This document shows positions 16,201 through 33,215 of a stretch of 64,000 nt of DNA, piece by piece. The notes beneath the pieces are model-generated. The model saw nothing but the letters and a program-made list of their open reading frames with translations, did not search any database and was not told the DNA's origin. Origin of the DNA: Anaerotignaceae bacterium (GTDB taxonomy: Bacteria; Bacillota; Clostridia; Lachnospirales; Anaerotignaceae). The position numbers and the translations under genes are program-made. The stretch lies in contig JBFWMT010000001.1 of the NCBI GenBank assembly GCA_050251415.1, positions 15,358-79,357 on the forward strand, written 5' to 3'. Every line of letters starts with the position of its first letter. The first letter of the stretch is position 1.

Positions 16201-16451
16201 TTATGCTTTTTTGTTGTTCAGCCTTTGCCGCCCTTCATAGTCCATATAAAAATCCTCTTTATGTATCAGGCTACTTAAAGGCACTATCTCATAACCTTTT
16301 TCCTTTAACCCTTTTATTATAGAATCCAGTGCTTGCGGAGTGTACTTTGCATCATTATGGAAAAGTATGATTGACCCATTACCCAAATGCTTGTGATTTA
16401 GCACTTGATTTACTTCCCTTTCCACACCATACTCTTTCCAATCCAAACTAT
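16201..16451 (-). pseudogene. 3' fragment of a split NodB-family (PdaB-like) polysaccharide deacetylase gene
   Basis: Encodes (D)SLDWKEYGV...GSIILFHND...GYEIVPLSSLI, i.e. NodB motifs 4-5 and the C-terminus. The first ~24 codons of track ORF 16201-16521 come from insert DNA. Confidence 0.8.
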
Positions 16452-16475
16452 CACTGCTGGATACAAGGTAAAACC
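16437..16475. other. Left att junction (gene arm + element arm)
   Basis: ccaatccaaactATCActGCTGGATACAAGGTAAAACC. The 20-nt element arm at 16456-16475 is the inverted repeat of 33179-33198. Confidence 0.65.
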
Positions 16476-16486
16476 TTGTAACACCA

Positions 16487-17626
16487 CTATTCAAGCACAT
16501 TAAAAACGTTTCTATCTTCATTGCCCAGGCTATTCAGTAACGTATACCCTAAAATATCCACAGCCCCATCATCTTTTGTATCGTCTTTTTCAGGATAGTT
16601 TGATAATATCACAACAACAGTTTTATGCTCTTTGTCAATACCTAGAAAACTTGTATAAGATGATGTACCGCCATTGTGCCATATATATCCACTTTCAGGG
16701 TCAATGATCCACCCTAGTCCCATGGAAATTCCGTCATCTTCAAATGTTTCATAAACTTCATGTGATAAAGCAAGATAGTTAGGTGAATCATTTAAGTGCA
16801 TTTCACCATATTTTAACAAATCAGTCACAGTGGATACAATACCTGCCGCAGCAAAGTATGTATCGTCATCATTCCATGCCCAATAACTATTCATATCCCC
16901 TGTTCCATTTCCAAGGCGAGTTTTCATAAGCCCAAGGTCATTTTTAATATAATTTTCAGATAGCGATTTAAATGTAGTACTGTATACATCACCAAGAACA
17001 GTACCCAATACTGCGTATCCGAAATTAGAATATTCCCAACCATAAGATTCTTCTTTCAAAACATGTAATTGTATATCTTCTAATATATCTGCTGCGTTGA
17101 TTCCCTGATATATGTTCTGTTTCTTTTCGTAAAAGTTCTCATTTACCATGTTCAGTTCTTCATCGGATAATGTAGAAGAGTCAAAGGGATATTCCCCATA
17201 CCCTGATGTATGTGTTGCTAGGCTTAGAATATCAGGATAAAATGTGTTAGACTCCAAGCTCAGATATTTTGAAATGCTATCATTTAAATTTATATGGCCA
17301 TCCGCTATTGCTTTGGAAAGCATGGAAGCCGTAAAAGTTTTGGAAATAGAACCAATTTCATATTCGTATTCAACTGGGGTCAATTCTTTGCCATTATAAC
17401 CATATAGCTTATAATTTATTTCATCTGCTTTCAACACACCAATAGTTAATTTTACATCTCTTTTGTCTGTTGTATATGTTTCAATCATGGAAGATATGGA
17501 TGCTGTATTATTTTGATTCGCTGCAAAAAAGCCTTTATCCCAATTATTTAAAAGTAATATTGCACCAGTGAACCCCAATATTACTACACCAATAGTAATT
17601 AATGCTTTCTTCGATTTAATCTTCAT
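16487..17626 (-). CDS. Membrane-anchored serine hydrolase of the beta-lactamase/PBP (class C-like) family
   Basis: N-terminal TM segment, then SxxK (SISKTF), YxN (YSNFGY) and HNGGT motifs. Confidence 0.7.
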   Translation of the reverse strand: MKIKSKKALITIGVVILGFTGAILLLNNWDKGFFAANQNNTASISSMIETYTTDKRDVKLTIGVLKADEINYKLYGYNGKELTPVEYEYEIGSISKTFTASMLSKAIADGHINLNDSISKYLSLESNTFYPDILSLATHTSGYGEYPFDSSTLSDEELNMVNENFYEKKQNIYQGINAADILEDIQLHVLKEESYGWEYSNFGYAVLGTVLGDVYSTTFKSLSENYIKNDLGLMKTRLGNGTGDMNSYWAWNDDDTYFAAAGIVSTVTDLLKYGEMHLNDSPNYLALSHEVYETFEDDGISMGLGWIIDPESGYIWHNGGTSSYTSFLGIDKEHKTVVVILSNYPEKDDTKDDGAVDILGYTLLNSLGNEDRNVFNVLE

Positions 17627-17727
17627 TTCAGCTTCTCCTTTATATTTAATTATCTATTTATAATTCATACTAAAATACATACGAGTGAACAACTATTTTG
17701 TATGAATATATAGCCTAAATAGATAAA

Positions 17728-18585
17728 TTAAAGCAACAAATCGCCTGCTGAAAAAAATGATACATCCCCACGTATAAAAACTTCTGTAATTATTGAAGTT
17801 TGTGTCACCCATCCTTGAATAATGCTTGGCCTATTAACAAATTGACCCTGGTGTATATCTATTATTTCATCATGTTTTTTAAGCCCATGTTTTACAAGAT
17901 ACGCACATAGAGGACCAGCGGCACTGCCAGTTACTACATCTTCAAAAACCCCATTATTATCCCATGTTCGGCATTCAAGGGTAGAAGAATCGAAAACATA
18001 AACAAATTTAGCTTCAAAACCTGCTAAAAAGCTTTCAAATTCGCCCATATTTATTTTTGCTTGAGCCAATCCACTCTTAAGTGGCACTAATAAATAAGGT
18101 AACCCTGTAGAAATAACTTCAACTGGTAATGCATCATCTATATCACATTCTTTTATATTTAGTGCATTTGCAATTTTATTATAATGCTTTCTCTCAATTT
18201 CATTTATAAACTGTGGTGAACCTTGATTCATGGTTACATTATAACTTTTATTCAAATAGCAAGACTGGGCAGTTAACCTTCTTCCAGATAAATCAAGGGA
18301 GATTTCCATGTTATTTTGAGAAGAAAAAAGCAATTTATGAATTACAGCGCAAGCACCAATAATCGGATGTCCAGCGAATTTCAACTCTTCGTCCACTGTA
18401 AATATTCTTACCGGAAAAGAACCCTCTTGATTTTTATCATATATAAAAATCGTTTCAAATTGCTTAAACTCTCTTGCAATGCTCAATAACTCTTTATCGT
18501 CAAGTGACCTGTCGGGGAAAACAACGGTAAGGCCATTCCCGCTCATTGGCTTTAAGGAAAAAACATCTACATGATAATATTTCAT
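17728..18585 (-). CDS. PhzF-family isomerase/epimerase-like protein
   Basis: 285 aa. N-terminus MKYYHVDVFS...GNGLTVVF and the duplicated DapF-like fold pattern are typical of PhzF. Confidence 0.65.
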   Translation of the reverse strand: MKYYHVDVFSLKPMSGNGLTVVFPDRSLDDKELLSIAREFKQFETIFIYDKNQEGSFPVRIFTVDEELKFAGHPIIGACAVIHKLLFSSQNNMEISLDLSGRRLTAQSCYLNKSYNVTMNQGSPQFINEIERKHYNKIANALNIKECDIDDALPVEVISTGLPYLLVPLKSGLAQAKINMGEFESFLAGFEAKFVYVFDSSTLECRTWDNNGVFEDVVTGSAAGPLCAYLVKHGLKKHDEIIDIHQGQFVNRPSIIQGWVTQTSIITEVFIRGDVSFFSAGDLLL

Positions 18586-18638
18586 TCAGAACCCCCCTAT
18601 ATGCTTCCTTATGTTACATGGATTTATTTAACTGCACT

Positions 18639-19166
18639 CTATTTCCTGTTTTTTATAGCCAGCCCTTTTAAAAAATTTCTAGCATATTTATCGCCGCACT
18701 CTTTATAATGTTTATGCCCTTCTTTTCGAAATAAAGCGCTCAATTCTCCTTTCGTTACAACCAATCCTGATGCTTCAAATATATTTAGCATATCTTCACT
18801 TGTTAGTGATAGCGCTATTTTCAGTTTTTTAAGCATAATATTATTAAGATTTGCACTTTTATTTATAGATAGTACTGGTCTTTCAGGTTGGTCTGGTTTT
18901 GCATCTTGATGACCTCTTTTGAAAATTATAAATCCATTTAAAAATGCTTCTAGTGTACTATTTCCGCATTTAATATTTTCTTTCTCTTCATCTTTTTCTT
19001 CATCATCTTCAACTTCGTCGTGGAAACCACCTTTTGATTTTATTAGCATCTTCCCCACTTCTTCTTTTGTCAGCTCAACACCACCAAGTTTAAATATTTC
19101 TACCATGTGGTTATCTTGTATATCTAGTGCATATCTTAATCTAATTAAAATATCATTATTATCCAT
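18639..19166 (-). CDS. DUF1456 (YehS-like) protein
   Basis: Two repeats of the NDILIRLRYALDI / LKKLKIALSLTSEDM type, separated by an acidic insert. Confidence 0.55.
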   Translation of the reverse strand: MDNNDILIRLRYALDIQDNHMVEIFKLGGVELTKEEVGKMLIKSKGGFHDEVEDDEEKDEEKENIKCGNSTLEAFLNGFIIFKRGHQDAKPDQPERPVLSINKSANLNNIMLKKLKIALSLTSEDMLNIFEASGLVVTKGELSALFRKEGHKHYKECGDKYARNFLKGLAIKNRK

Positions 19167-19261
19167 CTATAATCCTCCTATAAGTATCATGTTTTCTTAA
19201 ATTCTCAATTCGCTTTGTATTATAACACAAAATCAGAAAAATAAATTGATTTTATACTGAC

Positions 19262-19313
19262 AATAAAAATGAGTTAAACACACTAGTTAGTAACATTTCT
19301 AGGTGTTTAACTC
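19262..19313 (-). terminator. Intrinsic terminator after the CheX-like gene
   Basis: 11-bp stem gagttaaacac/gtgtttaactc, followed on the minus strand by ATTTTTATTG. Confidence 0.6.
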
Positions 19314-19343
19314 TTAATAATCCAGTCAATGAAAAAATTATAC

Positions 19344-19802
19344 CTACTCTAGTGCAATATTCATCTGTAAATTTATGCCATCTACATCAAAGTCAACACA
19401 AATCACTTCTTTTGTATTCATACTAATTTCTATATTTTCTCCATACATAAGGGCTGGAATAGATATATCTGTATTAATGCCTTGGTTAGAAAAATTTATA
19501 CTTGCGTTAGCAGAAAGCATGTTGGAAAGCTCTGAAACAGCACTTTTTGCCATATCATCAAACTCATCAACAGGCATTCCCATCATCATAGTAGAAGCAA
19601 TTTTTTTGGCACCTTCTAAATCTAATACATATACCACATTACCTTTTTTTTCTCCAACCATGCCTATAGTTAGTGCAACCCCCGACATAGAGATTTTATT
19701 ACCTTTTATACTTAAACCCGTACGTACAATATTTTCAAACCCAAGTTGCGGTAAAACTCCCGTCACGGCTTCTATAAAAGGATTTATGAAAGTTACATCC
19801 AT
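19344..19802 (-). CDS. CheX/CheC-family CheY-P phosphatase-like protein
   Basis: 152 aa. N-terminus FINPFIEAVTGVL. Phosphatase motif S-x3-E-x2-N (SAVSELSN) with a downstream Pro. Confidence 0.65.
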   Translation of the reverse strand: MDVTFINPFIEAVTGVLPQLGFENIVRTGLSIKGNKISMSGVALTIGMVGEKKGNVVYVLDLEGAKKIASTMMMGMPVDEFDDMAKSAVSELSNMLSANASINFSNQGINTDISIPALMYGENIEISMNTKEVICVDFDVDGINLQMNIALE

Positions 19803-20659
19803 TGTACATCCTCCTTTTTAAAACCTACATTCATAAATATTTCTCCAAAATCTGTTTTAATTGCAAACGACCTACTTTCCACTCCGGAAATGCTTACTGT
19901 TAAATCATTTCCATGAAATACCATTGGAGGCGATACACGAAGCCCAAGTGACCGATTTACGCCATTTAACAAGGAACAAGCATTACCTGATATGATGTTT
20001 GCACATTCACTTAAAAACATAACAGCATCATCAACTGAGTCACTTTCTCCAAAAGACACAATCTTTGTTATTTCTACCGCAGTATCTTCAGACATGTCCA
20101 CAATAAACCTGCCACTGTGTCTTCCTATAATACCTACAGCAACGGTAATTCCCAATGATTTTTTTGAAGATACATTATGAGCTTCAATCTCTTCAAAAAT
20201 CGCATCTCCGCCCAGCGTTCTTTTTAGATAATTAAACATAGATTCTTTAAACGCTGATGTATAGTTTTTCTTTAGAATCTCATATAATTCTTCCCCAGCA
20301 AATAATCTTTCAATTGCTGAATCCAACTCATCCTCATCAATTGGTTTTTGTATATAAGCTTTTATTCCAACTTGCTCTGCTCTTTTCATTATTTCTTTAT
20401 CCATCATAGAGCTAATAGCTATAATCTTAATACTCTTTTCATTATTTAATATTGCCTTGGAACACTCAATCCCGTCCCCATCAGGCAATGTCATATCCAT
20501 TGTAACTAAGTCTGGTTTTAATTCCTTTGCTAATTCTATGGCATCTTTTACATTTAATGCTGACCCTACTACCTCAAGTCCCTTTTTTTCAAGCATTCTT
20601 TTTAGAACTGCTGTTGAAAAACTAGAATCGTCTACTAACATTACTCTTATATTTTTCAT
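19793..20659 (-). CDS. Response-regulator receiver fused to a CheC/CheX-like domain
   Basis: REC domain (VMLVDDS ... DLVTMDMTLPDGDG ... KPI), then a CheC-like region with E-x2-N (SECAN) and a downstream Pro. Overlaps the next gene by 10 nt. Confidence 0.7.
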   Translation of the reverse strand: MKNIRVMLVDDSSFSTAVLKRMLEKKGLEVVGSALNVKDAIELAKELKPDLVTMDMTLPDGDGIECSKAILNNEKSIKIIAISSMMDKEIMKRAEQVGIKAYIQKPIDEDELDSAIERLFAGEELYEILKKNYTSAFKESMFNYLKRTLGGDAIFEEIEAHNVSSKKSLGITVAVGIIGRHSGRFIVDMSEDTAVEITKIVSFGESDSVDDAVMFLSECANIISGNACSLLNGVNRSLGLRVSPPMVFHGNDLTVSISGVESRSFAIKTDFGEIFMNVGFKKEDVQWM

Positions 20660-20862
20660 ATAAACACCGCCTTCAAATTAGAATATGTGACACATTTACC
20701 CGTCAATTGAAACCTAAATTAAATTTTAACAGTTTTTAAGTTTCTCACTACTATAATATCATTAATAGGTGTGTTTATTCAATCAATTTTTTATTGAAAA
20801 CCATTTTTTCTACTTTTTTCTCTAAATTTTCTAATATTATTAATCCACCGCTTAAGCCATTT

Positions 20863-20907
20863 GCAACAAAAAAGGAATGAACCTCTAATGCCCATTCCTT
20901 TTGTTGC
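20863..20907 (-). terminator. Hairpin terminator after the repeat-lipoprotein gene
   Basis: gcaacaaaaaaggaatg-N13-cattccttttgttgc. Confidence 0.55.
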
Positions 20908-20910
20908 AGC

Positions 20911-21537
20911 CTACTTTTCTTTTTTATCTGTAGCGTTACCGCCCATTACCTGCAATTCTATAATCTTATCTTCACCATCATATGTAATCTTTACAACAGT
21001 GTCTACTGTAAGGTCTTCAATCGTTCCTTCTACCAACTTACCATCTTGAACGACCTTAATGGTTACACTGCTGTCAATTTCAGTATTAATTTCTTCATCA
21101 CTTGCTGTAAATGAACTTTCATTTTTGCCATTGCCCATGTCACCGCCCTGTGGAGCTTCTCCTGTTGGAGCTTCTCCCATTGGCGCTTCACCTGTTGGAG
21201 CCTCTCCGGTTGGTGCTTCACCTGTTGGAGCTTCTCCTGTTGGAGCTTCTCCCTTTACCATATCCATTGTACCAAGTGCCAGTGTAACTTCTGTTCCCGA
21301 AACTGCCGTTATTTTACCATAAATTCCTTCTGCTTCTTTTGCTTCAACATCTTTTCCTGTTTGTTCTGCTGGGGCTTCAGCCTTTTCTTCTGTTGCAGGC
21401 GTTGCCGCCGTTGTTGTAGTACTTGAGCCAGAACAACCAGCCAAAGATAAAGATAATACACATATTGCCACTGCAGTTACAGCTAATTTTACATGTTTTT
21501 TCAAAATAATTAGTCCCTTCTCTTTAAGAGAGGACAC
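20911..21537 (-). CDS. Lipoprotein with (GEAPT)n repeats
   Basis: Lipobox LSLAGC, seven GEAP(T/M/Q) repeats and a C-terminal beta-rich domain. The likely true start is TTG 21504 (LKKHVKLAV...). Confidence 0.6.
   Translation of the reverse strand: MSSLKEKGLIILKKHVKLAVTAVAICVLSLSLAGCSGSSTTTTAATPATEEKAEAPAEQTGKDVEAKEAEGIYGKITAVSGTEVTLALGTMDMVKGEAPTGEAPTGEAPTGEAPTGEAPMGEAPTGEAPQGGDMGNGKNESSFTASDEEINTEIDSSVTIKVVQDGKLVEGTIEDLTVDTVVKITYDGEDKIIELQVMGGNATDKKEK
21151..21255. repeat. 7 x 15-bp in-frame tandem repeat (GEAPT coding)
   Basis: Units tggagcttctcctgt / tggagcttctcccat / tggcgcttcacctgt / tggagcctctccggt / tggtgcttcacctgt / tggagcttctcctgt / tggagcttctccctt. Confidence 0.9.
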
Positions 21538-21569
21538 CCATTAGGATGCCCAACTCACTGCGTTAAATT

Positions 21570-22169
21570 TTATTCTGTTGCACAATCAGTCGTTGGCTTT
21601 TCAGGTTTTTCACCTTTAAAATTTCCGCCACCCTGTGGCATTTCATCACTACGTATAGATATAGATGTTATTGTTTCTCCATCATCAGCATATTCTATCA
21701 TCAACACATCATCAACTTCAATGTCGTCATAGCTAAGTTCAACCATTTCACCATCTTCCACGGTTTTTACAGTAATATCATCAGTAATGGTAATAACAGC
21801 TTCTTCACCATCAAATGTCATTTCTCTGCCACCTCTTTTACCTTCTGATGTATCTGTTGAATCAGTTGAATCTGGCTTTTCAGGCGGTGCTGTTTTTTCA
21901 GTTGTATCCGTTGTATCAGGCTTTTCAGGAGGCGCTGTTTTTTCAGTTGTATCAGTTTCATCAGGCTCTGCTTGAATTGTAACTGTTATTTTCTTTCCAT
22001 CAACAGCAGTTACCTTTGCCATTTTGCCATTTCTTTCAGGTCTTTCACCTTTAGTAGTTGCTGCCTCTGTATTTGTAGTTGCCACCGTGCTACTTGCCAT
22101 TGCACTAACACCCATTACAGAAGTCATAGACATAGCTAACACCAACATAGTTATAATTTTCTTTTTCAT
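21570..22169 (-). CDS. Secreted repeat protein, paralogous in architecture to 20911-21537
   Basis: Signal peptide, a KVTAVDGKKITVTI segment, two TDTTEKTAPPEKPD repeats and a C-terminal domain ITVKTVEDGEMVELSYDDIEVDDVLMIEY. Compare TIKVVQDGKLVEGTIEDLTVDTVVKITY in the neighbour. Confidence 0.6.
   Translation of the reverse strand: MKKKIITMLVLAMSMTSVMGVSAMASSTVATTNTEAATTKGERPERNGKMAKVTAVDGKKITVTIQAEPDETDTTEKTAPPEKPDTTDTTEKTAPPEKPDSTDSTDTSEGKRGGREMTFDGEEAVITITDDITVKTVEDGEMVELSYDDIEVDDVLMIEYADDGETITSISIRSDEMPQGGGNFKGEKPEKPTTDCATE
21871..21960. repeat. 2 x 45-bp in-frame tandem repeat
   Basis: Copies at 21871-21915 and 21916-21960, about 39/45 identical. Confidence 0.85.
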
Positions 22170-22433
22170 TTTTAATCAATCCTCTCTTCATATAAGTTTT
22201 TAGATAATAATTTTCAGTTAATGTCCTGCCCCCTTTGCTCTTTATATTTCCAAATTATAGAATTACAAAGTTAATTTGCGGTTAACCAAATATTAAGTTT
22301 TTTTGAACAAATTGGTTTCATCATACTGTGATATTGAAATATTTATTATGTTTAAAAACATAATAAATGCCCCCAAAATGTCATAAACAATTACAACATT
22401 TAGGAGGCAAAAATTATTCATCTATGCTTTTAA

Positions 22434-23762
22434 TTAACCAATAAACTCGTTATCCACAATAGTAAGAACTTCATCAAGTTTTAAAAGCTCCTCTGTCAAC
22501 TGCTCTTCTGTAATTATAAGTGGAGGACAAATAAATACCATATTTTCATGAGTATAGGTCATAAATTTTTTCTCTTTTAACTTACCTAATACTTTTCCCA
22601 TAATTCCATCTGGGTCTTTTCCATAAGGGACTAAAGGCTCTTTTGTTGCTTTATCTTTAACCAATTCCACAGCAGAGAATAAGCCTATGTATCGTACATC
22701 ACCAACGCATGGATGTGCAGTCTTCATTTCCTCTAATTTCTGCCCTAAAACTTTGCCTACTTTATTTACATTTTCAAGAATATTTGCTTCCTGGTAGTAG
22801 TTAACACAAGCGACGCCAGCAGCGCATGCCAATGGATGTCCGCTGTATGTTAAACCGCAGGATAACATGTTATCATCAAAATGTTCCGCAATCTCCTTGC
22901 TTACAACCACACCACCAAGTGGAACATAACCACAGGTCACACCCTTTGCAAATGTTACAATGTCTGGCTTAACATCGAAATTCTGGAATCCAAACATCTT
23001 ACCAGTTCTTCCCCATCCAGCCATAACCTCATCGCATATCATCATAATACCGAATTCATCACATATTTCTCTTACTCCTGGTAAATAACCTTTTGGTGGA
23101 ATAATAATGCCGTTAGAACCTGTTACAGTTTCCAATACGATAGCTGCAACACTATCATAGCCTTCATAAGAAATTTGTTCTCTAAGCTTTGTTAAATAAT
23201 ATTTTGTAGCAGCTTCTTCGGATTCAAATTCAATTGCTTCTCTGTAAATATAAGGGTCAAAAAACTTAACAAACCCTGGAATTCCTGGCTCTAACGCATA
23301 GCGTCTTGGCTCACCAGTTAAATTGCCTGCACCGAATGAAGACCCATGGTAGCTGCGGTATCTGCTGAAAACCTTATACTTGCCTGTAAACATACGAGCA
23401 ATTTTAATAGCATTTTCATTGGATTCTGCACCAGCATTTGTAAAAAACACCTTACCCATGTTGTCTGGCATAAGGTCAATTATCATTTTAGCTAGCGTTG
23501 CTCTAGTTTCTGAGCCATAAGAAGGACCGATAAAGCAAAATTTATCTACTTGTTCCTTAATTGCTTCATTGATTGCCTTATTTCCAAACCCCACATTCAG
23601 GTTAACCAACTGTGATGACATATCCGTATATCTATTGCCATCATAATCCCAAAAATAAATTCCATCCGCTTTTTCAACAGGAATTGGATTAATACCTTTT
23701 TGTTTGCTCCATGATTGTAAATTGTATTGCTTTGATGTGCTTTTAATTTCTTCACCTGTCAC
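22434..23762 (-). CDS. Class-III (omega) PLP aminotransferase
   Basis: 442 aa with the class-III pattern (GSESNE-like AGAESNENAIK; DEVMAGWGRTG; FAKG Lys). GTG start after AAGGAG. Confidence 0.75.
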   Translation of the reverse strand: MTGEEIKSTSKQYNLQSWSKQKGINPIPVEKADGIYFWDYDGNRYTDMSSQLVNLNVGFGNKAINEAIKEQVDKFCFIGPSYGSETRATLAKMIIDLMPDNMGKVFFTNAGAESNENAIKIARMFTGKYKVFSRYRSYHGSSFGAGNLTGEPRRYALEPGIPGFVKFFDPYIYREAIEFESEEAATKYYLTKLREQISYEGYDSVAAIVLETVTGSNGIIIPPKGYLPGVREICDEFGIMMICDEVMAGWGRTGKMFGFQNFDVKPDIVTFAKGVTCGYVPLGGVVVSKEIAEHFDDNMLSCGLTYSGHPLACAAGVACVNYYQEANILENVNKVGKVLGQKLEEMKTAHPCVGDVRYIGLFSAVELVKDKATKEPLVPYGKDPDGIMGKVLGKLKEKKFMTYTHENMVFICPPLIITEEQLTEELLKLDEVLTIVDNEFIG

Positions 23763-23939
23763 AAAATCATCTCCTTGTTCTTTATAAAAGAAAACGGGGG
23801 CATGTTCTACTGAACAAGCCTCCTTGCAGTTTAACGGTTATAATAACTATTATAATGAATACCTTTTTATTATTCAATCACATATTGAACATATTTTCAT
23901 GTTCATATGCACAATAAAATCATCTTATGTCAATCACTT

Positions 23940-25130
23940 TTATAATATGTCTTTAATTAAAAATCCAACACTGCATCTTACTTTTTCATCCAGATTAAGC
24001 AGGTTATATCCCGTAATTTTTTCTATTTTCTTAATTTGGTTATTTACCGTATTGCGATGAATGAATTGCTGTTCACTAACCAATTGAGGGCTTCCGTTAT
24101 TTTCTAAATAAGACTGTAAAAAACCCATTAAGTCCGTATCATTTTCCATATCATACTGCTCTAATTTTCCAAATACGTCATAATAAAATTCATAAAGGTT
24201 TTTTTTATCTTTAACAGCCATAAGCACTTTATATATATCCAAATCATCATAATAGTTTACACGTGCGTTTTTCTTTTTTGCCATTTCATTTGCATCAATA
24301 GCCCTATCAAAATTGGTATCCTGATTAGTGAAACCCTGCATAATAGAGCTTACACCAATGTAGATTAAAAATGCAGATTTCTCAGTTCCAACTAAATTCA
24401 TTAGTTTATCAACAAATTTACGAACATTTTCCATTTCACTTTCAGATAAAACCACTACCAAATTGTATTGATATGTAAATGAAATAAATAATTGCTGCCT
24501 TGTTCTTGCAATTTGTTCCACATACAATTTTAGTTTTTCCATGTTTACACTTTCATGGTCCCCATATATATTATCCAAAGAAATGTTTACAAAACAAAAA
24601 TAACTTTCCCGTGTAAACCCGTAACGCTCCATTTGCTGTATCTGTGTATCCAAATCTCCTATTTTAAAAATAATATCTTTTATGGTAGTAGAAATGCTTG
24701 CTTCAACATTTTGGTTGTGAATAATTCTGCCACAGAAATCTCTTGTCATATCAACCATTCTTGTCTTCCAAGGAATAGTGAATAATGGTAAGTTTACCTT
24801 ATTACAAAAATCAATAACCTCTATTGGAATAATTTTTATATAGGGGCCAATATTAATAACTAAAGCACTTGCCTTGGCTTCATAAATGTTTTTAGCAAAC
24901 CTAATTAACCATTCATTGTCCCTGCACATGTATCCAGCAATAAAAATTAGTTCGTGCCCATGCAAAAATGATGAAACCTCTTCATCTTCAACAATATGCA
25001 CCCATTCAACTAAATTATTAAGCCCTTTATTCCCTGCTAAAAGCTTCATCTGGTAAAGCGCACCACTGTTACTATAAAGCTTGCTTACCGCTAATGCCAT
25101 AAAATCACCCACTTTATTAAAGTTGTACAT
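23940..25130 (-). CDS. PucR/CdaR-family transcriptional regulator
   Basis: About 390 aa. C-terminal PucR HTH (IHRNTVNNQIKKIEKITG). The start may be the internal MALAVSKLY (25100). Confidence 0.7.
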   Translation of the reverse strand: MYNFNKVGDFMALAVSKLYSNSGALYQMKLLAGNKGLNNLVEWVHIVEDEEVSSFLHGHELIFIAGYMCRDNEWLIRFAKNIYEAKASALVINIGPYIKIIPIEVIDFCNKVNLPLFTIPWKTRMVDMTRDFCGRIIHNQNVEASISTTIKDIIFKIGDLDTQIQQMERYGFTRESYFCFVNISLDNIYGDHESVNMEKLKLYVEQIARTRQQLFISFTYQYNLVVVLSESEMENVRKFVDKLMNLVGTEKSAFLIYIGVSSIMQGFTNQDTNFDRAIDANEMAKKKNARVNYYDDLDIYKVLMAVKDKKNLYEFYYDVFGKLEQYDMENDTDLMGFLQSYLENNGSPQLVSEQQFIHRNTVNNQIKKIEKITGYNLLNLDEKVRCSVGFLIKDIL

Positions 25131-25240
25131 ATAAATTTTAACATAAAAAAAAGAACAATACCATTGCTATTGTAAACATGCGATATGTCTTTATTAGAGT
25201 ATTTCTTTATATACCAATTATTTGTTAGCCATTTAAACAT

Positions 25241-25292
25241 AAAAATACCCCTTTAGTTATTTTCAGTATTAAATACTGCCTAACTAAAGGGG
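25241..25292 (-). terminator. Intrinsic terminator ending the ABC/aminotransferase/ADH operon
   Basis: 12-bp stem cccctttagtta/taactaaagggg, followed on the minus strand by TATTTTTATGTTT. Confidence 0.65.
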
Positions 25293-25352
25293 TGCTCTGA
25301 ATTCTTGCAATATCAAACAACTTCATTCCATTGGTTTAACTTCGAACAAACT

Positions 25353-26504
25353 TTACCATAACCTCTTGTAAATTTCAATTAGATCTTCCTTTGTAACTTC
25401 TTTAATTGTATTGGATGGGCTTCCGCTAGTCATAGCGTCACCAGCCATTTTATCCATCAAAGCATAAAATTCATCTTTGTTAATGCCATACTCTGCTAAG
25501 GTTGGAATTTTGCAAATTTTACATATCTTAACTAATTCTTGTAAAAATGCTTTTGCAGCTTCTTCATCGGGTGTACTTTCATCTGCCGCACCAATTGCTC
25601 TTGCAATGGTAGCAAATCTATCATAACAGCCATCTAATACATATGCCAAACATTCTTTTATTAACATAGCGTTTGAAATTCCATGTGCTACATGGAATAA
25701 AGCTCCAATTGGTCTGCTCATACCGTGAACAAGGGTTACAGAGGCATTATTAATGCAAACACCAGCTTCAAAGGCAGCTATGGACATTTCTTCTCTTGCC
25801 TTTTCATCATTGCCATCATTGTAAGCTATTGGAAGGTACTTAAAAATACGCTTAATAGCAGAAAGGGCAAACATATCTGTTAAAGTGTTTCCCTTCCTGG
25901 AAGTATAAGACTCAACAGCATGTGTTAAGGCATCCATACCAGTAGCGGCAGTAGTATTTTTAGGAGATGTTTTAGTAAATGTAGGGTCAACAATTGCCAA
26001 CTTAGGCAATAATACATCTCCTTTTAAAAGCATTTTAACTTGCTTTTCTTCATCTGTAATAATTGTAAATTTAGTTGCCTCCGAGCCTGTGCCTGCAGTT
26101 GTTGGGATTAAAACCATTGGAGGTAAATCTCCTACTATTTCACGGCCCATATAGTCTGAAAGGTTCCCTTCAAGAACAGCCATGGCAGCAATTGCCTTTA
26201 CACTGTCAAGTGGGCTTCCTCCGCCTATGCCAATAAGAAAATCACATCCTGTTTCCTTATATGCTTTAACACCAGCTTCAATCATTTTATCTGTAGGCTC
26301 GCCTACTATGTCATTAAATACTTCATATTTAATATTCCAACTATCAAGATAATCTGTAAGTGTTTTAACCATACCTGTTTTTGTTACTATTTTACCAGTA
26401 ACTATAAACGCTTTTGCTCCAAGTTTTTTTACCACTGCTTCACTTTCTGCCAAAGCATTTGCTCCAATTAGTGTTTGTCCTGGTAATATAAATTTACATG
26501 CCAT
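25353..26504 (-). CDS. Iron-containing (group III) alcohol dehydrogenase, 4-hydroxybutyrate/succinate-semialdehyde reductase-like
   Basis: 383 aa. GGGSPLDSVKA NAD-binding motif and His-rich metal site (THAVES..., HGMSRPIG..FHVAHG). Confidence 0.7.
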   Translation of the reverse strand: MACKFILPGQTLIGANALAESEAVVKKLGAKAFIVTGKIVTKTGMVKTLTDYLDSWNIKYEVFNDIVGEPTDKMIEAGVKAYKETGCDFLIGIGGGSPLDSVKAIAAMAVLEGNLSDYMGREIVGDLPPMVLIPTTAGTGSEATKFTIITDEEKQVKMLLKGDVLLPKLAIVDPTFTKTSPKNTTAATGMDALTHAVESYTSRKGNTLTDMFALSAIKRIFKYLPIAYNDGNDEKAREEMSIAAFEAGVCINNASVTLVHGMSRPIGALFHVAHGISNAMLIKECLAYVLDGCYDRFATIARAIGAADESTPDEEAAKAFLQELVKICKICKIPTLAEYGINKDEFYALMDKMAGDAMTSGSPSNTIKEVTKEDLIEIYKRLW

Positions 26505-26524
26505 TTTACATCTTCTCCTTCATA

Positions 26525-27877
26525 TTAGATACATTCTCTTATGGCATTTTCTAATATTTCAAAGCCAGCATTTAACTGTTCATCCGTTATTACAAGCGGT
26601 GCAAGGAAACGAATAACATTTCCGCTCATGCCGGCATTCTCTATAATTAACCCATGTTGGGCACAAATTGCCATAAGCCTGTTAACAATTTCGCCATTTG
26701 GCTCTTTTGTTGTTTTGTCTTTTACAAATTCTATGCCAATCATGGCACCTAGTCCACGCACATCTCCAATGACTTCGTATTTGTCTTTCCATACACTAAA
26801 AGCTTCCATACATTTTTTACCTATTTGTGCAGAACGCTCCACAAGATGCTCTCTTTCCATTATCTCTAAAACCTTTAAACCTGCCGCACATGCCAAGGCA
26901 TTGCCACCATAAGTTCCGCCTAGTGTACCAACCGGCACTGCGTCCATAACCTCCGTGCTGGCAATAATTGCACTTAAAGGAATTCCTCCAGCTATAGATT
27001 TTGCGGCAGTAATAATATCTGGAGCACAATCCACCTCTGCCCAATACTGAGTTGCAAAAAATTTGCCTGTACGCCCAAAACCAGACTGAACTTCATCTGC
27101 TACCAAAAGGATTCCATTTTCGTCACAAATTTTCCGAACAGCTTTTACCCATTCAATTGGGGCAGGTATAAACCCGCCTTCTCCCTGTAAAGGTTCTAAT
27201 ACAATAGCCGCAACATATTCAGCGGGAGATGCATTTTCAAATACCATTTTCAAACTCTCTATGTAAAAATCTATGGCTTCCTTCTCGGTCATCCCTGTAG
27301 GTCTGCGGTATAAATAAGGATATTCTGCACGGTAAACGCCATCAGGAAAAGGCCCCATACCAACTGCATAAGCTTTTTTTGCGGTCATTGTCATTGCAAG
27401 CATGGTTCTTCCATGAAAAGCTCCTGAAAATACAATGATATTAGGGCGTTTCGTACAACCTTTTGCAATCTTTACCGCATTCTCATTTGCTTCTGCCCCA
27501 CTGTTGGCGAACATTACTTTTTTTGTGTTCCCTCTTACCGGTGCAATTGCTGCAAGCTTTTCTGCTAAACTGATATACCCTTCATGGGTTACAATATTAA
27601 CCATACCATGGAAGAACTTACTGGCTTGTTCATTCACAGCCGCTACTAATTCTGGGTGTGCATGCCCCACATTAAGAACCCCTACACCTCCTACCCAATC
27701 CAAAAAAATATTTCCATCTACATCTTCTATCATAGCACCTTCAGCACGTTCTATAACGCAAGGATAAATACAACGAATTGCATTTGGAACTACATTTTTT
27801 CTACGTTCAATAATTGCCGCCGCCTTTGGTCCAGGTAATTGTTCTGTAGAAATTTTAGGTAAAGCATATTTTAACAT
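26525..27877 (-). CDS. gabT: 4-aminobutyrate aminotransferase-like class-III aminotransferase
   Basis: 450 aa with GPKAAAIIERR, VGHAHPELVAAV, DEVQSGFGRTG and AKSIAGG (Lys). Confidence 0.7.
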   Translation of the reverse strand: MLKYALPKISTEQLPGPKAAAIIERRKNVVPNAIRCIYPCVIERAEGAMIEDVDGNIFLDWVGGVGVLNVGHAHPELVAAVNEQASKFFHGMVNIVTHEGYISLAEKLAAIAPVRGNTKKVMFANSGAEANENAVKIAKGCTKRPNIIVFSGAFHGRTMLAMTMTAKKAYAVGMGPFPDGVYRAEYPYLYRRPTGMTEKEAIDFYIESLKMVFENASPAEYVAAIVLEPLQGEGGFIPAPIEWVKAVRKICDENGILLVADEVQSGFGRTGKFFATQYWAEVDCAPDIITAAKSIAGGIPLSAIIASTEVMDAVPVGTLGGTYGGNALACAAGLKVLEIMEREHLVERSAQIGKKCMEAFSVWKDKYEVIGDVRGLGAMIGIEFVKDKTTKEPNGEIVNRLMAICAQHGLIIENAGMSGNVIRFLAPLVITDEQLNAGFEILENAIRECI

Positions 27878-27902
27878 AATAATAATCTCCCTTCGTTAAC
27901 TT

Positions 27903-28502
27903 TTAAGAAAATAAAATACGTACAGCTTCACATATTAAATCCACGCTTCCTTCTATACCATAAGCGCTTACATCAAACATAACATGCTTACCCGATCGAT
28001 CTCCACGACTTTTCCCTGTAACATATTCATAATAGTTATGGCGCTGATTGTCAATCCTTTTTATCATTTTTTCTGCATTTTTTTCTGTAAGGTCATAATG
28101 TTTTGCTATATGCTCAATTCTCTTTTCTAGCGGAGCATAGAAAAAAAAGTTAATTACGTTTGGATATTCTCTTAAAATGTAATCCGAGCAACGTCCAAAC
28201 ATGATACAAGATTCTTTTCTTTCTGCAATCTCACGTATCACATCAGCCTGTGCAGCAATGGCTTTTTCGGAATAGAATGAGTTAGACGAACCGTACACAA
28301 ATTCAGAAAATAAACGGTTTTGCTTATTTAATATTTCATCAGATTCTTTAACAATATCTATATTAATACCTGCTTTTGATGCTGTTAAATCCACCAAATC
28401 TTTATCATAAAATGGAACCCCCAACTTGCTGGCAAGGTTACGTCCAATTTCACGTGCGTTACATCCAAACTCTCTACTTATGGTTATAATATATTTTTTC
28501 AT
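27903..28502 (-). CDS. Cytidylate-kinase-like family protein (P-loop-less CMK2 type)
   Basis: N-terminus ITISREFGCNAREIGRNLASKLGVPFYDKDL is typical of Cytidylate_kin2 proteins. Confidence 0.55.
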   Translation of the reverse strand: MKKYIITISREFGCNAREIGRNLASKLGVPFYDKDLVDLTASKAGINIDIVKESDEILNKQNRLFSEFVYGSSNSFYSEKAIAAQADVIREIAERKESCIMFGRCSDYILREYPNVINFFFYAPLEKRIEHIAKHYDLTEKNAEKMIKRIDNQRHNYYEYVTGKSRGDRSGKHVMFDVSAYGIEGSVDLICEAVRILFS

Positions 28503-28545
28503 ATTTAATTCCTCCTAAACTTAAGCTAAAGGAAGACGTTTTTAA

Positions 28546-29271
28546 CTAACGTCTTCCTTTATTTAATTTTCTTTCTAAAAATCGAATTGCAAATGATAAA
28601 GGAATGCAAATAACCAAGTAAACCCCAGCCAATATTGTGTAGGATTCAATAGTTAAAAATGTTTGTGCAGTATATGCCTTTGTCGTCATCAAAAATTCTT
28701 GTGCAGTAATATAAGCCATTAAAGAAGTATCCTTAACCATCATTACTAAATAATTTCCGAATACTGGAACCGAGTTTCTAAATGCCTGGGGTATAACAAT
28801 TCTAAACATTGCCTGATGATTAGAAAATCCTAACGCCAATGCCGCTTCTTTTTGTCCGTTATCTATAGAAATAATAGCAGAACGAATCACTTCTGATATA
28901 TATGTTCCATAGTTAATGGCAAGGCCAATAATACCTGCGGTCATAGAACCCATTGAAACCTTAAAATCTGATATACCAATAATTGCTGCAAAAATTTCTA
29001 TAAACAAAGGCATTACATAATAGATGTATACCATCTGAACCAATAATGGTGTTCCTCTAATAAATTCTTGAAAAATAATAATGACATGATTCAGTGCTTT
29101 CTTTTTTGAGACTCTTCCCAAAGCAAGAATAAAACCAAAAACAATTGCAAATAAAAAACCTACTATAGTTGTAATAACAACAATTTGTAAGGCCTCACCT
29201 AACAATTTTGGAAGCAATTCTACTATAGCTTTAGAAAAATTTAAATTTTCAAGTACTTTCATACCTGCCAC
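28546..29271 (-). CDS. Amino-acid ABC transporter permease
   Basis: HisM/GlnP-like. EAA-type loop (AALALGFSNHQAMFRIVIPQA). Confidence 0.8.
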   Translation of the reverse strand: MAGMKVLENLNFSKAIVELLPKLLGEALQIVVITTIVGFLFAIVFGFILALGRVSKKKALNHVIIIFQEFIRGTPLLVQMVYIYYVMPLFIEIFAAIIGISDFKVSMGSMTAGIIGLAINYGTYISEVIRSAIISIDNGQKEAALALGFSNHQAMFRIVIPQAFRNSVPVFGNYLVMMVKDTSLMAYITAQEFLMTTKAYTAQTFLTIESYTILAGVYLVICIPLSFAIRFLERKLNKGRR

Positions 29272-29281
29272 CTCCTAATTG

Positions 29282-30025
29282 TTATTTATTTAAAACACGT
29301 GCCAAAAATTCTTTAGTTCTATCATTTTTAGGATTCGTAAACATTTCAACAGGAGAGCTGTCTTCTACTACATATCCAGAATCCATAAATATAACTCTGT
29401 CTGCAACATCCTTCGCAAAACCCATTTCATGGGTAACTACCGCCATTGTCATTCCTTCATCTGCCAATTCTCTCATTACATTTAAAACATCCCCTACTAA
29501 TTCAGGGTCAAGGGCAGAGGTAGGTTCATCGAATAACATAATTCTAGGTTCCATTGCAAGTGCACGAGCAATAGCTACACGCTGTCTTTGCCCACCTGAT
29601 AGTGTTTCAGGATAAACTTTTGCTTTGTCTGCAAGGCCAACCTTCTTTAAAAGTTGCATTCCTTTTTCGTGTGCTTCTTCTTTATTCTTTTTTAATATGT
29701 GTATAGGCGCATAAGTTACATTATCAATTACCGTCATAAACGGAAAAAGATTAAAATTCTGAAAACACATACCTACACTTTGCCTATAGGTTCTAACATT
29801 AAATTTATGTTTTAAAATGTTTTCTCCATTATAAATAATTTCTCCGTCTGTTGGCACTTCCAGCAAATTTAAGCATCTAAGTAGTGTACTTTTACCAGAC
29901 CCAGAAGGGCCTATAAGAACAAGAACCTCACCCTCTTCAATGGAAATATTAATATTTTTTAAAACCTCAAGGTCGCCAAATTTCTTTTGTAATTTTTTAA
30001 CTTCTAATAGTGGCATTATAATCAC
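29282..30025 (-). CDS. Amino-acid ABC transporter ATP-binding protein
   Basis: Walker [10 protein letters not shown], signature LSGGQRQR and Walker [11 protein letters not shown]. Confidence 0.9.
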
Positions 30026-30053
30026 TTCCTTTAATTTTGTAAGCAGTTACCTT

Positions 30054-30250
30054 AAAAATAAATACTGCAGGTATTTATGAAGGAAATGCTGATTTAATGT
30101 ACTCAAAATCAATTTGCAAAAAATTTGTCGTTTCATAGCATTTTATTGCATTAAATGCCCTTTACACTCCATTTTTTGCCGCTAAACCTAAATTTATTTT
30201 TTGATATTTGAATTAATCAGCATTTCCCTAGATCACCTGCAGTATTTTTG
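30054..30250. repeat. ~197-bp intercistronic element with ~37-nt terminal inverted repeats
   Basis: AAATACTGCAGGT..GGAAATGCTGATTTAAT (30059-30097) versus ATTAATCAGCATTTCC..ACCTGCAGTATTT (30213-30246). Lies between the SBP gene and the ATPase gene. Confidence 0.7.
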
Positions 30251-30264
30251 ATGTAATTTGCTAA

Positions 30265-31245
30265 TTACTCAGTCTTTGTGTTAATATCATGGGTACGTTC
30301 CTCATTTGTAATCATATGAAGCTTTGGATCTAATTTGTAATCTTCAAAAACTTTATCAATAAAACCTTCATCTCTAAGTTTAGCCACAACAGCATCTACT
30401 TCTTTCATAAACTCAATATCATCAAAATTAACTGATGGTGCAATTCTTCCAATTGTTGATTCATCATCTGTATAATTTTCTGCCATCTTTAATCCTTTTA
30501 CAGCATCTGGAGTATTTGCAAAAAGATTTTCCAGAACGGTGGAATCAGTTAAAAATCCGTTTATCTTGCCATTTTGTAAAGCAACTATGGATTCTGACTG
30601 GTCTCCAGTTGCACGAGCTTCTTTAATTAACCCCTGTTCCTTCCAGCCTTCTACAGATGTTTGCCAAACAGTACCTGGTGTATAACCAATAACCGTTGAA
30701 CTTGAGTCAAAATCTTCTATGCCATTAATTGATCCCTCAGATGGAACCAAAAGACCACCGCCCTGTGTATACCAAATTTCGCCGAAGTAAATTTTTTCTG
30801 CACGGTCTGCTCTAATATACATACAGTCAGCAATAATATCTATTTTGTCTGAATTCAAATTTAAAATCAGTTCAGAAAAAGGAATAAGCTCCATTTGTGT
30901 CTTTTCAATGCCAAGCCTTTTTGAAACTTCTTTAATAATTTCGGCATCAACGCCTGAAAATTCTCCGGTAGCCTGGTCAATGTAAGCAAAGGGTGCATCC
31001 CCTGATGAACCAACTAATAAAGTACCTTTTTCTCTTAATTCGGTTAGCTTTTCACTTGGAACACCATCTTTAGAAAATGAATTATCATATTGTTTTTCTG
31101 CTGAAGCGGCACTACTTTCTTCTTTGGCTGGAGTTGCAGAAGCTTCCTTTTTTTCTGCACCACATCCACTTAACATTGCAATTGATAGAACTATTGATAT
31201 TCCTAAAGATAACATCCTAACCTTTTTACAATTAAATTTTTTCAT
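30265..31245 (-). CDS. Amino-acid ABC transporter substrate-binding lipoprotein
   Basis: Lipobox MLSGC and a family-3 SBP pattern (GSSGDAPFAYID...). Start trimmed to MKKFNCKK (ATG 31245) with RBS AGGGGG. Confidence 0.75.
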   Translation of the reverse strand: MKKFNCKKVRMLSLGISIVLSIAMLSGCGAEKKEASATPAKEESSAASAEKQYDNSFSKDGVPSEKLTELREKGTLLVGSSGDAPFAYIDQATGEFSGVDAEIIKEVSKRLGIEKTQMELIPFSELILNLNSDKIDIIADCMYIRADRAEKIYFGEIWYTQGGGLLVPSEGSINGIEDFDSSSTVIGYTPGTVWQTSVEGWKEQGLIKEARATGDQSESIVALQNGKINGFLTDSTVLENLFANTPDAVKGLKMAENYTDDESTIGRIAPSVNFDDIEFMKEVDAVVAKLRDEGFIDKVFEDYKLDPKLHMITNEERTHDINTKTE

Positions 31246-31270
31246 ACCATTTCCCCCTTTTTTTGTTAAT

Positions 31271-31305
31271 ACAAAAAGGAGCACAACGTAATAACGTGTG
31301 CCCCT
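31271..31305 (-). terminator. Leader (attenuator-type) intrinsic terminator upstream of the ABC operon
   Basis: Minus-strand RNA AGGGGCACACG-UUAUUA-CGUUGUGCUCCU followed by UUUUUGU, about 25 nt before the RBS. Confidence 0.55.
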
Positions 31306-31416
31306 TTGCATTATTAATTTTTGCTATAATTTTTTAGTAGTAAGCAGAAAGACAAACTAGTGTGCATTCGCATAAGCTACGTCATTTATGCCTTTCTGTT
31401 GTTTACTATGTTAGTG

Positions 31417-31445
31417 ATTCTAGCAGATGTGTTTACATTTAGCAA
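31417..31445 (-). promoter_or_regulatory. Putative sigmaA promoter of the ABC/catabolic operon
   Basis: Minus strand: TTGCTA (31445-31440), 17 nt, TAGAAT (31422-31417). Confidence 0.5.
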
Positions 31446-31501
31446 TAGGCTAAAAAACACATTTCGATGTTCACTTGCACAATTCAAAGATTTTATATGT
31501 T

Positions 31502-32953: not shown

Positions 32954-33081
32954 TACCTACACCTCTTGCTTTTATTTCTTTCTACTGCAAGTTTTCTACA
33001 AATTCTATGTAATGTTTCATTAATTACTTTCTCTTCTAATTCCTCATTTTCATAATTTGGTCTTATGTGTTTAATCTTCAT
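32953..33081 (-). CDS. 42-aa ORF translationally coupled to the recombinase (candidate accessory/directionality factor)
   Basis: My own translation: MKIKHIRPNYENEELEEKVINETLHRICRKLAVERNKSKRCR. RBS AAAGGGTG is present. The stop overlaps the recombinase ATG as TAATG. Confidence 0.4.
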   Translation of the reverse strand: MKIKHIRPNYENEELEEKVINETLHRICRKLAVERNKSKRCR

Positions 33082-33178
33082 AAAATCACACCCTTTAACA
33101 TTTTATGAAACAGAAAACTTTATTACCACTTTTTCACCTATTCTTGCATGTATCATCTACTGCAATATTAAAAAGCTA

Positions 33179-33215
33179 GGTTTTACATCATATCCAGCCC
33201 ATCAACGTCCCATTG
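33179..33215. other. Right att junction (element arm + gene arm)
   Basis: GGTTTTACATCATATCCAGCccATCAacgtcccattg. Confidence 0.65.

Follow-up and report, generated by a model that had tools for sequence, protein, structure and literature searches.

A 64,000-nucleotide stretch of the genome of an Anaerotignaceae bacterium (assembly GCA_050251415.1, contig JBFWMT010000001.1, positions 15,358 to 79,357; the window, below, means the whole of this stretch) carries a pdaB-like polysaccharide deacetylase gene that is interrupted by a 16.75-kb element. Two short sequences in the window are the attL and attR junctions of this element: they mark its true ends, both lie in the Asp182 codon of the gene, and the element between them encodes its own large serine recombinase (LSR). 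It is probably an intervening element that has been retained by vertical descent and undergoes precise excision, most likely in the mother cell during sporulation, as do the skin element of sigK and the gin element of gerE. The gene, the recombinase and the junctions are arranged as follows.

16201-16449, minus strand: 3' fragment of the pdaB-like gene, residues 183-264 (SLDWKEYG...).
16438-16475, no strand assigned: left junction (attL), ccaatccaaactATCActGCTGGATACAAGGTAAAACC, with ATCA at 16450-16453; its host half-site is ccaatccaaactAT and its element half-site CActGCTGGATACAAGGTAAAACC, which contains the left arm.
16451-16452: crossover dinucleotide TC of the left junction; on the sense strand GA, the first two bases of the Asp182 codon.
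16456-16475: left 20-nt arm, GCTGGATACAAGGTAAAACC.
16453-33202, minus strand: intervening element, 16,751 bp between equivalent core positions, with 16 genes, all on the minus strand.
31502-32953, minus strand: LSR of 483 amino acids (aa), with PF00239, PF07508, PF13408 and the nucleophile motif YARQS at residues 5-9.
33179-33215, no strand assigned: right junction (attR), GGTTTTACATCATATCCAGCccATCAacgtcccattg, with ATCA at 33201-33204; its element half-site is GGTTTTACATCATATCCAGCccAT and its host half-site CAacgtcccattg.
33179-33198: right 20-nt arm, GGTTTTACATCATATCCAGC.
33202-33203: crossover dinucleotide TC of the right junction, oriented as at the left junction.
33205-33746, minus strand: 5' fragment of the pdaB-like gene, residues 1-182; its open reading frame (ORF) continues into the element and stops at 33183.

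Exchange at the shared ATCA gives two deduced sites: an attB with the junction-spanning stretch CCAATCCAAACTATCAACGTCCCATTG, and an attP with the junction-spanning stretch ATATCCAGCCCATCACTGCTGGATAC (the name attP is used here for a site of a non-phage island). The two arms are complementary at 17 of 20 positions, and all three mismatches fall within a single 4-nt block (ATCA/CTTG). The centre of the 48-bp attP lies between the T and the C of ATCA, where the best axis of symmetry has an offset of 0 and scores 17/24, the runner-up axis scoring 8/24. The symmetry of attB is weak (11/26) and consists chiefly of CAAT...ATTG, at positions 10-13 on each side. The deduced attP is therefore an imperfect dyad of about 48 bp with a non-palindromic centre, paired with a less symmetric attB. 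Because the TC cores are in direct orientation, recombination between the two junctions would delete the intervening DNA by excision and would not invert it.

The arms are also rare in the window. A search with GGTTTTACNNNNTATCCAGC, allowing up to two mismatches and masking the four variable positions, returned two matches in 64 kb, namely the two arms, where 0.04 were expected, and none of 100 shuffled sequences had two or more. When 200,000 pairs of window positions were joined at random, a dyad of at least 17/24 at any of 17 axes arose with P = 1.45e-4. The arm pair is not among the 25 longest inverted repeats reported by a general repeat finder; its significance comes from its location and not from its length. 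Most of this layout had been read from the letters alone by the first-pass annotation, which placed the right junction at 33179-33215 and ATCCA-N4-ATCA at 16441-16453 and 33192-33204, described the 17/20 arms, the T|C axis and the poorly symmetric attB, and attributed the whole to a large serine integrase. These descriptions hold, and an LSR with the expected domains lies 249 bp inside the right junction. One coordinate needs correction: the left junction string is present as quoted, but it starts at 16438, one base after the 16437 that had been given.

Joining 16453 to 33205 restores a minus-strand ORF of 264 aa (...YYTVQWDVD|SLDWKEYG...) with a polysaccharide deacetylase domain (Polysacc_deac_1, PF01522; E = 4e-36). 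The restored protein spans the PdaB equivalog model TIGR02764 completely (1-191 of 191) at 226.4 bits, a score well above those it obtains as PdaA, YlxY or PgdA. The break falls in the conserved sequence QWDVDSLDW, which we take to be NodB motif 4. In 42 intact homologues the same sequence reads QW(D/S)(V/I)(D/N)SLDW, without an indel at the breakpoint, and the inferred breakpoint thus agrees with naturally uninterrupted sites; since the nearest intact protein is just 79% identical, these are sister-taxon sites and not same-species empty sites. The earlier claim that the exchange restores the reading frame is borne out by the 264-aa ORF. A different breakpoint at empty sites had been named as an observation that would speak against the proposal, and the 42 intact homologues, which in effect supply that comparison, do not contradict the TC breakpoint.

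In Bacillus subtilis, pdaB (spoVIE) belongs to the sigmaE regulon of the mother cell, and sporulation of a mutant falls to 5% (PMC4703394). In the window, a possible sigmaE-type promoter for pdaB itself, in the sequence upstream of the gene, was considered and dropped, the match being weak by eye. Two details of the 5' fragment concern its ends. The TAA stop of the truncated fragment (33183-33185) lies inside the conserved arm motif GTAAAA, so that in elements with GTAAAA arms the broken ORF terminates a few codons past the junction. At the other end, the listed GTG start (33738-33746) falls within a likely ribosome-binding site, GAGGTGA, and homologous proteins start with MKNIFKD; the true start is therefore probably the TTG two codons downstream.

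The recombinase gene starts inside the element, 249 bp from the crossover of the right junction. Its product has a catalytic domain (PF00239; E = 1.9e-38, residues 2-143) in which R7, Q8 and S9 are near-invariant across 29 homologues, and a C-terminal region with Recombinase (PF07508) and Zn_ribbon (PF13408) domains. In an AlphaFold2 model of the protein, with a predicted local distance difference test score of 81, residues 383-439 form a long helical hairpin (helices 383-410 and 416-439), as expected for a coiled coil. A Foldseek search with this model placed the full-length SPbeta, Bxb1, phiC31 and LI integrases at the top (E = 4e-19 to 1e-12), the best match being the SPbeta integrase (9dxd), and the closest phage integrases are about 35% identical in sequence or less. 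Orthologues of 75-83% identity sit in the same split gene, and the exact recombinase occurs on one other contig, a 2.9-kb Logan contig that ends 86 bp before the junction and is uninformative. An identity as an XisF-type heterocyst excision recombinase was also considered; the protein scores 160 bits against an equivalog cut-off of 375 for NF041201, and the resemblance is functional only. The element thus has its own recombinase near one end, and its excision in silico restores an uninterrupted ORF, as is expected of an intervening element.

Interruption of the gene at this codon is widespread. One genome per species was scanned with the restored protein, which yielded 79 loci; the species counts depend on the loci retrieved by peptide patterns. 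Among the species representatives, 26 have an N-terminal junction at codon 182, six have a C-terminal junction only, and 42 are intact. A pdaB-type gene split at the same Asp codon, at GA, is therefore found in 32 of the 74 species representatives retrieved from related Clostridia (~40%). Cultured carriers are Anaerovorax odorimutans DSM 5092 (L073), Lachnospiraceae bacterium NSJ-143 (L048) and Lachnospiraceae bacterium 46-61 (L066), as well as Clostridium sp. ASF356, whose gene is interrupted at a second site.

Several of these elements appear to have been inherited together with their hosts. Three loci, taken as separate species (L002, L003 and L004), have LSRs 80-83% identical to that of the window, in the same split gene; their host flanks (TerD, TelA, cation ATPase) and their core of cargo genes are likewise those of the window. 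Between the window, L002, L003 and L072, synonymous divergence (pS) is 0.24-0.61 for element genes and 0.36-0.72 for host flanks, and species pairs rank in the same order for both, L002-L072 being the closest and L003 the most distant. The element has consequently diverged in step with its host flanks, which places it in their common ancestor and implies that the gene has been split throughout. Between split genomes both gene fragments stay open, with ratios of nonsynonymous to synonymous substitution (dN/dS) of 0.02-0.12; the recombinase has a pN/pS of about 0.2, and the att arms are conserved as well. All eight members of the 90%-identity protein cluster that holds the N-terminal fragment of the window are truncated. 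Open fragments and purifying selection over such a shared history make a permanently broken gene unlikely, and regular, precise reconstitution is the simplest explanation.

Judged by its gene content, the element is neither a prophage nor a conjugative element. Apart from the integrase, its proteins include no phage structural, lysis or packaging genes in Pfam or PHROGs, although one protein with a beta-lactamase fold shares just a hydrolase domain with one tail-lysin PHROG. In IMG/VR, a 42-nt degenerate attP pattern had no match and no close relative of the recombinase was found. A prophage identity was rejected on these grounds, the element having no capsid, tail, terminase, lysis or replication genes. 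An integrative conjugative or mobilisable element was likewise rejected, as the 16 element proteins include no relaxase, coupling-protein or type IV secretion families in Pfam.

Excision can be pictured from these components. LSR dimers would bind the element half-sites, which have conserved CTGGATA and GTAAAAC blocks, and the weaker host half-sites, and would cleave each junction at the non-palindromic TC with breaks staggered by 2 nt. Subunit rotation and religation would then yield the element as a circle with the 48-bp dyad attP, and leave pdaB seamless. Since the element is neither phage nor conjugative, is vertically inherited, and leaves both gene halves intact, its excision is most likely regular and programmed; by analogy with skin, SPbeta, gin and yin, it would be confined to the terminal mother cell during sporulation. 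Excision of this kind, by preserving the germ line, would also account for the element never being lost. It would probably need a recombination directionality factor (RDF), for which the candidate is a small ORF that lies, with a promoter-like block, between the right junction and the recombinase gene.

32953-33081, minus strand: conserved 42-aa ORF, MKIKHIRPNYENEELEEKVINETLHRICRKLAVERNKSKRCR, whose stop overlaps the ATG of the recombinase (TAATG).
33100-33128, minus strand: promoter-like block TGGTAAT-N14-CATAAAAT, upstream of the 42-aa ORF (alignment A1, columns 103-134).

The 42-aa ORF has pN/pS values of 0.08-0.47, which indicates purifying selection, and a small ORF of 42-46 aa recurs upstream of recombinases that are 60% and 53% identical to that of the window (L086:5851-5991 and L088:5867-6004). 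These ORFs share the N-terminal motif M-x-I-x-H-x-x-P-x-Y, and the 42-aa ORF has no match in Pfam or PHROG. In L088, the small ORF does not adjoin a deacetylase gene, the 53%-identical recombinase having a different target. The promoter-like block is near-invariant in six orthologous loci, while the surrounding spacer between junction and ORF is variable; it resembles what we take to be the sigmaE consensus, and is a lead. No terminator-like site separates the pdaB 5' fragment, the 42-aa ORF and the LSR, which all point in the same direction. Known RDFs are small proteins of diverse structure (PMC12286644). A more detailed scheme can be offered tentatively: the codon may be a stable, recurrent landing site, and in the lineage of the window excision would be timed by the interrupted gene itself, with the pdaB promoter or the downstream CATAAAAT promoter driving a 42-aa micro-RDF translationally coupled to the LSR, so that pdaB would be reassembled in the mother cell and the island retained in the germ line.

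The general arrangement has precedents. All characterised intervening elements with an LSR lie in mother-cell genes and are excised only there (PMC4191935, PMC5025042, PMC5595907). The skin element of sigK (recombinase SpoIVCA in B. subtilis and CD1231 in Clostridioides difficile) is an LSR-bounded element in a mother-cell sporulation gene whose precise excision restores the ORF, as is proposed for the element here. In C. difficile, a 72-aa RDF, CD1234, under the control of sigmaE and SpoIIID, confines excision to the mother cell (PMC5025042). The candidate cofactor here, in contrast, is 42 aa long and coupled to the LSR in translation; the interrupted gene is not sigK and encodes a PdaB-like deacetylase; the cargo is metabolic and not prophage-like; and the system is known from sequence alone.

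The gin element of gerE in Bacillus cereus ATCC 10987 (GirC/GirX) resembles the present one in being a non-prophage intervening element with a serine recombinase. It is small and essentially cargo-free, whereas the element in the window is 16.75 kb long, carries a conserved, catabolic-looking operon, and occurs in several species with co-divergence. The att sites of gin are imperfect inverted repeats around central dinucleotides, and an extra factor is required for its recombination (PMC5595907). Sporulation-linked reconstitution of mother-cell genes by an LSR is also known for SPbeta in spsM (SprA/SprB), vfbin in spoVFB, vrin in spoVR, and yin in yabG (PMC4191935, PMC5499854, PMC10747680). 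Those four are prophages or prophage remnants, while the element here has no phage genes.

It is unlikely that the element, with the att sites correct, is a plain genomic island, one that has inactivated a dispensable pdaB paralogue and has no programmed excision or developmental role. The cargo found at the site varies widely, from an efflux pump or MoxR-VWA genes to HD-GYP or toxin-antitoxin, Fic and repressor genes. The last of these, in other lineages, suggest that the class is, or was, horizontally mobile, and the occurrence of at least five LSR lineages, 36-60% identical, indicates that insertion has happened horizontally in the past. A second, intact paralogue is present in some genomes, as in one metagenome-assembled genome (MAG) with both a split and an intact copy (L030 and L082), so that loss of one copy might be tolerated. 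The product of excision was found in none of the collections searched: 5.8 billion clusters contain no intact protein from the same species, the best intact homologue being 79% identical; no same-species empty site or excised circle was found; and a degenerate core pattern found no attP junction in JGI metagenome contigs. The single JGI match (L085) was set aside as chance, as it sits within a response-regulator gene on a GC-rich contig and lacks arms.

Further points weigh, with those above, against programmed excision during sporulation. The restored protein falls just below the TIGR02764 equivalog cut-off of 237.4 bits. Sporulation genes were sought among the ten large ORFs of the window outside the element, and only housekeeping (RNase R, Rho, PrfA, glycogen phosphorylase) or unassigned genes were seen. 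The host is an uncultured Anaerotignaceae MAG, and the sigmaE-like label of the promoter-like block is tentative. Against a plain island stands the state of the gene itself. A dead gene should decay, yet both fragments are open and constrained (dN/dS as given above) while synonymous sites are near saturation. The element has co-diverged with its host, with the gene split for that whole time, and the LSR, the small ORF and both att arms have been conserved as well.

The position of the crossover can be refined by comparing six elements for which both junctions are available, those of the window, L003, L072+L074, L042+L076, L044+L079 and L073 (Anaerovorax odorimutans DSM 5092). Reconstruction of their attP sites puts the best dyad axis of every one on the same G|A of the sense TGA (T|C on the plus strand of the window), with scores, in the order given, of 17, 15, 17, 13, 15 and 17 out of 24; in L042+L076, one further axis ties at 13/24. 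The asymmetric 2-bp TC crossover proposed in the first-pass annotation is thus matched by the same axis dinucleotide in six sites whose arms belong to three unrelated families (GGTTTTAC..TATCCAGC; TTTTTGTTTCTAA; GTTGTATTT).

Exchange at the AT or the CA of the shared ATCA, in place of TC, is improbable. Within the window the identity block is 4 bp long, and AT, TC and CA would yield the same products. Between elements, however, the block differs, being TGAT in the window and TTGA in L073; the two overlap in TGA, with AT outside this overlap and CA (sense TG) within it. The dyad axis of the six attP sites lies between G and A. Furthermore, GAA stands at 15 of 32 N-terminal junctions, against GAT or GAC in intact host genes. 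The base before GA is G or A in 9 of these 32, whereas it is T in all 12 C-terminal junctions; in host genes this position varies between T, G, A and C. Consequently, GA comprises the only bases that are always common to the host and element sides.

The half-sites themselves are structured. In the family A elements, the element half-site has two conserved blocks, CTGGATA (+6 to +12) and GTAAAAC (+17 to +23), separated by a variable 4-nt block that holds the three arm mismatches. Two blocks per half-site fit two DNA-binding domains per subunit, as in the structure of LI integrase bound to DNA, where contacts by the recombinase and zinc-ribbon domains would be expected. In L072/L074 the outer motif is changed in both arms, from GGTTTTAC/GTAAAACC to GGGTTTAC/GTAAACCC, as would be expected were a single protein domain to recognise the two arms. 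TGGAT (+7 to +11), which is the shared ATCCA, is present in the 3' host half-site as it is in the element half-sites; one half-site of attB thus mimics the attP half-sites, while the other hardly does so. At least five LSR lineages (36-60% identity) use the codon-182 site, and across lineages the unrelated attP arms share just a short CTnGA block, which is also present in attB. The layout is that of phage serine integrases (A118/LI integrase, 4KIS; Bxb1; phiC31), with an attP of about 48 bp and imperfect dyad symmetry, two blocks per half-site, a less symmetric attB and a non-palindromic 2-bp core, although the arm sequences here are unrelated to theirs. The LI integrase model has the outer motif shifted inward by about 5 bp in attB; such a shift of GTAAAAC was sought here and found unconvincing, with three to four of seven positions matching.

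Selection without excision could in principle operate if the gene halves act as separate polypeptides, that is, as a permanently split enzyme, but this is very improbable. Both halves are under purifying selection, and the window has an in-frame ATG 24 codons before the 3' fragment begins (ORF 16201-16521). However, that ATG is in element DNA and is not conserved, and the gene called in L003 starts within the fragment. The break also falls inside the conserved QWDVD|SLDW, and a split enzyme would leave the conservation of the LSR and of the symmetric att arms unexplained. That the inverted repeat arose by chance, or is part of a prophage or transposon that has nothing to do with the recombinase, can be dismissed almost entirely: the 19-kb AT-rich region does hold many longer and poorer inverted repeats, with the arm pair outside the 25 longest, but the pair is located at a frame-restoring junction, its motif is unique in the window, random pairs seldom match it, 32 species share this architecture at the one codon, the element of the window has no phage genes, and the comparative data already contradict such an origin.

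The kind of arrangement is therefore known, while pdaB appears to be new as a target. No report combining pdaB with a serine recombinase was found in the literature searched, and the papers on intervening elements found there make no mention of a deacetylase. In a large-scale survey, att sites were inferred from element boundaries, and distant LSR clusters were found to be able to share a target gene cluster (Durrant et al. 2022; PMC10083194); deacetylase targets are absent from the main text of that paper. The wide occurrence of the phenomenon, the vertical inheritance of metabolic cargo and the micro-ORF coupled to the recombinase likewise appear to be new.

If the gene is indeed rebuilt by excision, then pdaB, which acts in cortex maturation, joins a short list of sporulation genes reconstituted in this way, and the phenomenon would be common in gut-associated Clostridia (Anaerotignaceae, Lachnospiraceae and relatives), beyond the Bacillus and Clostridium models. 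The 26 distinct element half-sites, set against one conserved attB and a GA core, would amount to a natural specificity series for LSRs, which could guide the design of orthogonal integrase and att pairs. The micro-ORF at the start of the recombinase gene would be a candidate for an unusually small directionality factor. For annotation, genes called as truncated deacetylases would be halves of one functional gene.

The remaining genes of the element form its cargo, with families assigned by Pfam and PHROG scans.

16487-31311, minus strand: cargo genes.
22434-31311, minus strand: cargo core, from the transporter to the PucR regulator.

From the recombinase side, the cargo comprises an SBP/ABC/permease transporter, a cytidylate-kinase-like protein, two class-III aminotransferases, an Fe-alcohol dehydrogenase (Fe-ADH) and a PucR regulator. 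Farther from the recombinase are two repeat-rich exported proteins, a response regulator-CheX fusion, CheX, DUF1456, a PhzF-like protein and the hydrolase with a beta-lactamase fold. The cargo core is 81-98% identical in orthologous elements of other species. It resembles a module for uptake, transamination and reduction of an omega-amino acid, and the substrate might, as a guess, be gamma-aminobutyric acid (GABA) or beta-alanine.

The end of the element far from the recombinase differs between species (window 16487-19166; L003:19296-19846; L074:8504-10004; L002/L004:17694-20831). Among the compared elements, the PhzF-like and beta-lactamase-fold genes occur in the window only, DUF1456 is present in the window and L003 and absent in L074, and a ZnuABC transporter is inserted in L002 and L004. 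The two repeat-rich proteins are adjacent, exported or lipoprotein-like (20911-21537 and 21570-22169, minus strand), and contain tandem peptide repeats (21136-21270 and 21845-21979) with units of (TGEAP)n, from a 15-nt DNA period, and TTEKTAPPEKPD. The second has a 79%-identical homologue in L074, and neither has a meaningful family match.

Elements of other lineages at the same codon carry other genes, read over the 10 kb that follow the N-terminal junction; across lineages, cargo of amino-acid catabolism, RND efflux, MoxR-VWA or HD-GYP type is non-phage. In L047 the genes are a MarR regulator, an RND efflux pump and an M20 peptidase; in L057, a HEPN/MNT toxin-antitoxin pair, Fic and repressors; in L066, a SWIM/HEAT/MoxR/DUF5682/VWA gene set; and in L073, within 5.2 kb, DUF2992, HD-GYP-like and PNPOx-like proteins. 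In the MAG AnMBR.bin497, which has a family B element, the two junctions lie on different contigs (L042:10549-20564 and L076:3253). In L042, element-like genes (recombinase, LysR, membrane protein) extend for only about 3.6 kb past the N-terminal junction, and then come genes that, judged from their sequences, are of housekeeping type (L28, ribulose-phosphate epimerase, RsgA). The arrangement may reflect rearrangement or mis-assembly.

The same gene has a second interruption site, at about codon 66, at which the window is intact. In 12 loci (L019, L026, L027, L029, L031, L032, L061, L066, L067, L068, L070 and L071), homology begins abruptly at residue 67 (|TGGGGTGCAGATGA, W-G-A-D-D) after unrelated AT-rich DNA. 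A DUF4368-type large serine recombinase reaches this second break in L019 and L071, and a close relative with the same TerD and ATPase flanks has a matching upstream junction, GCATGGGGTGCAG|gtatttattg (L091:10190-10230). In six loci both breaks are present, leaving pdaB in three pieces.

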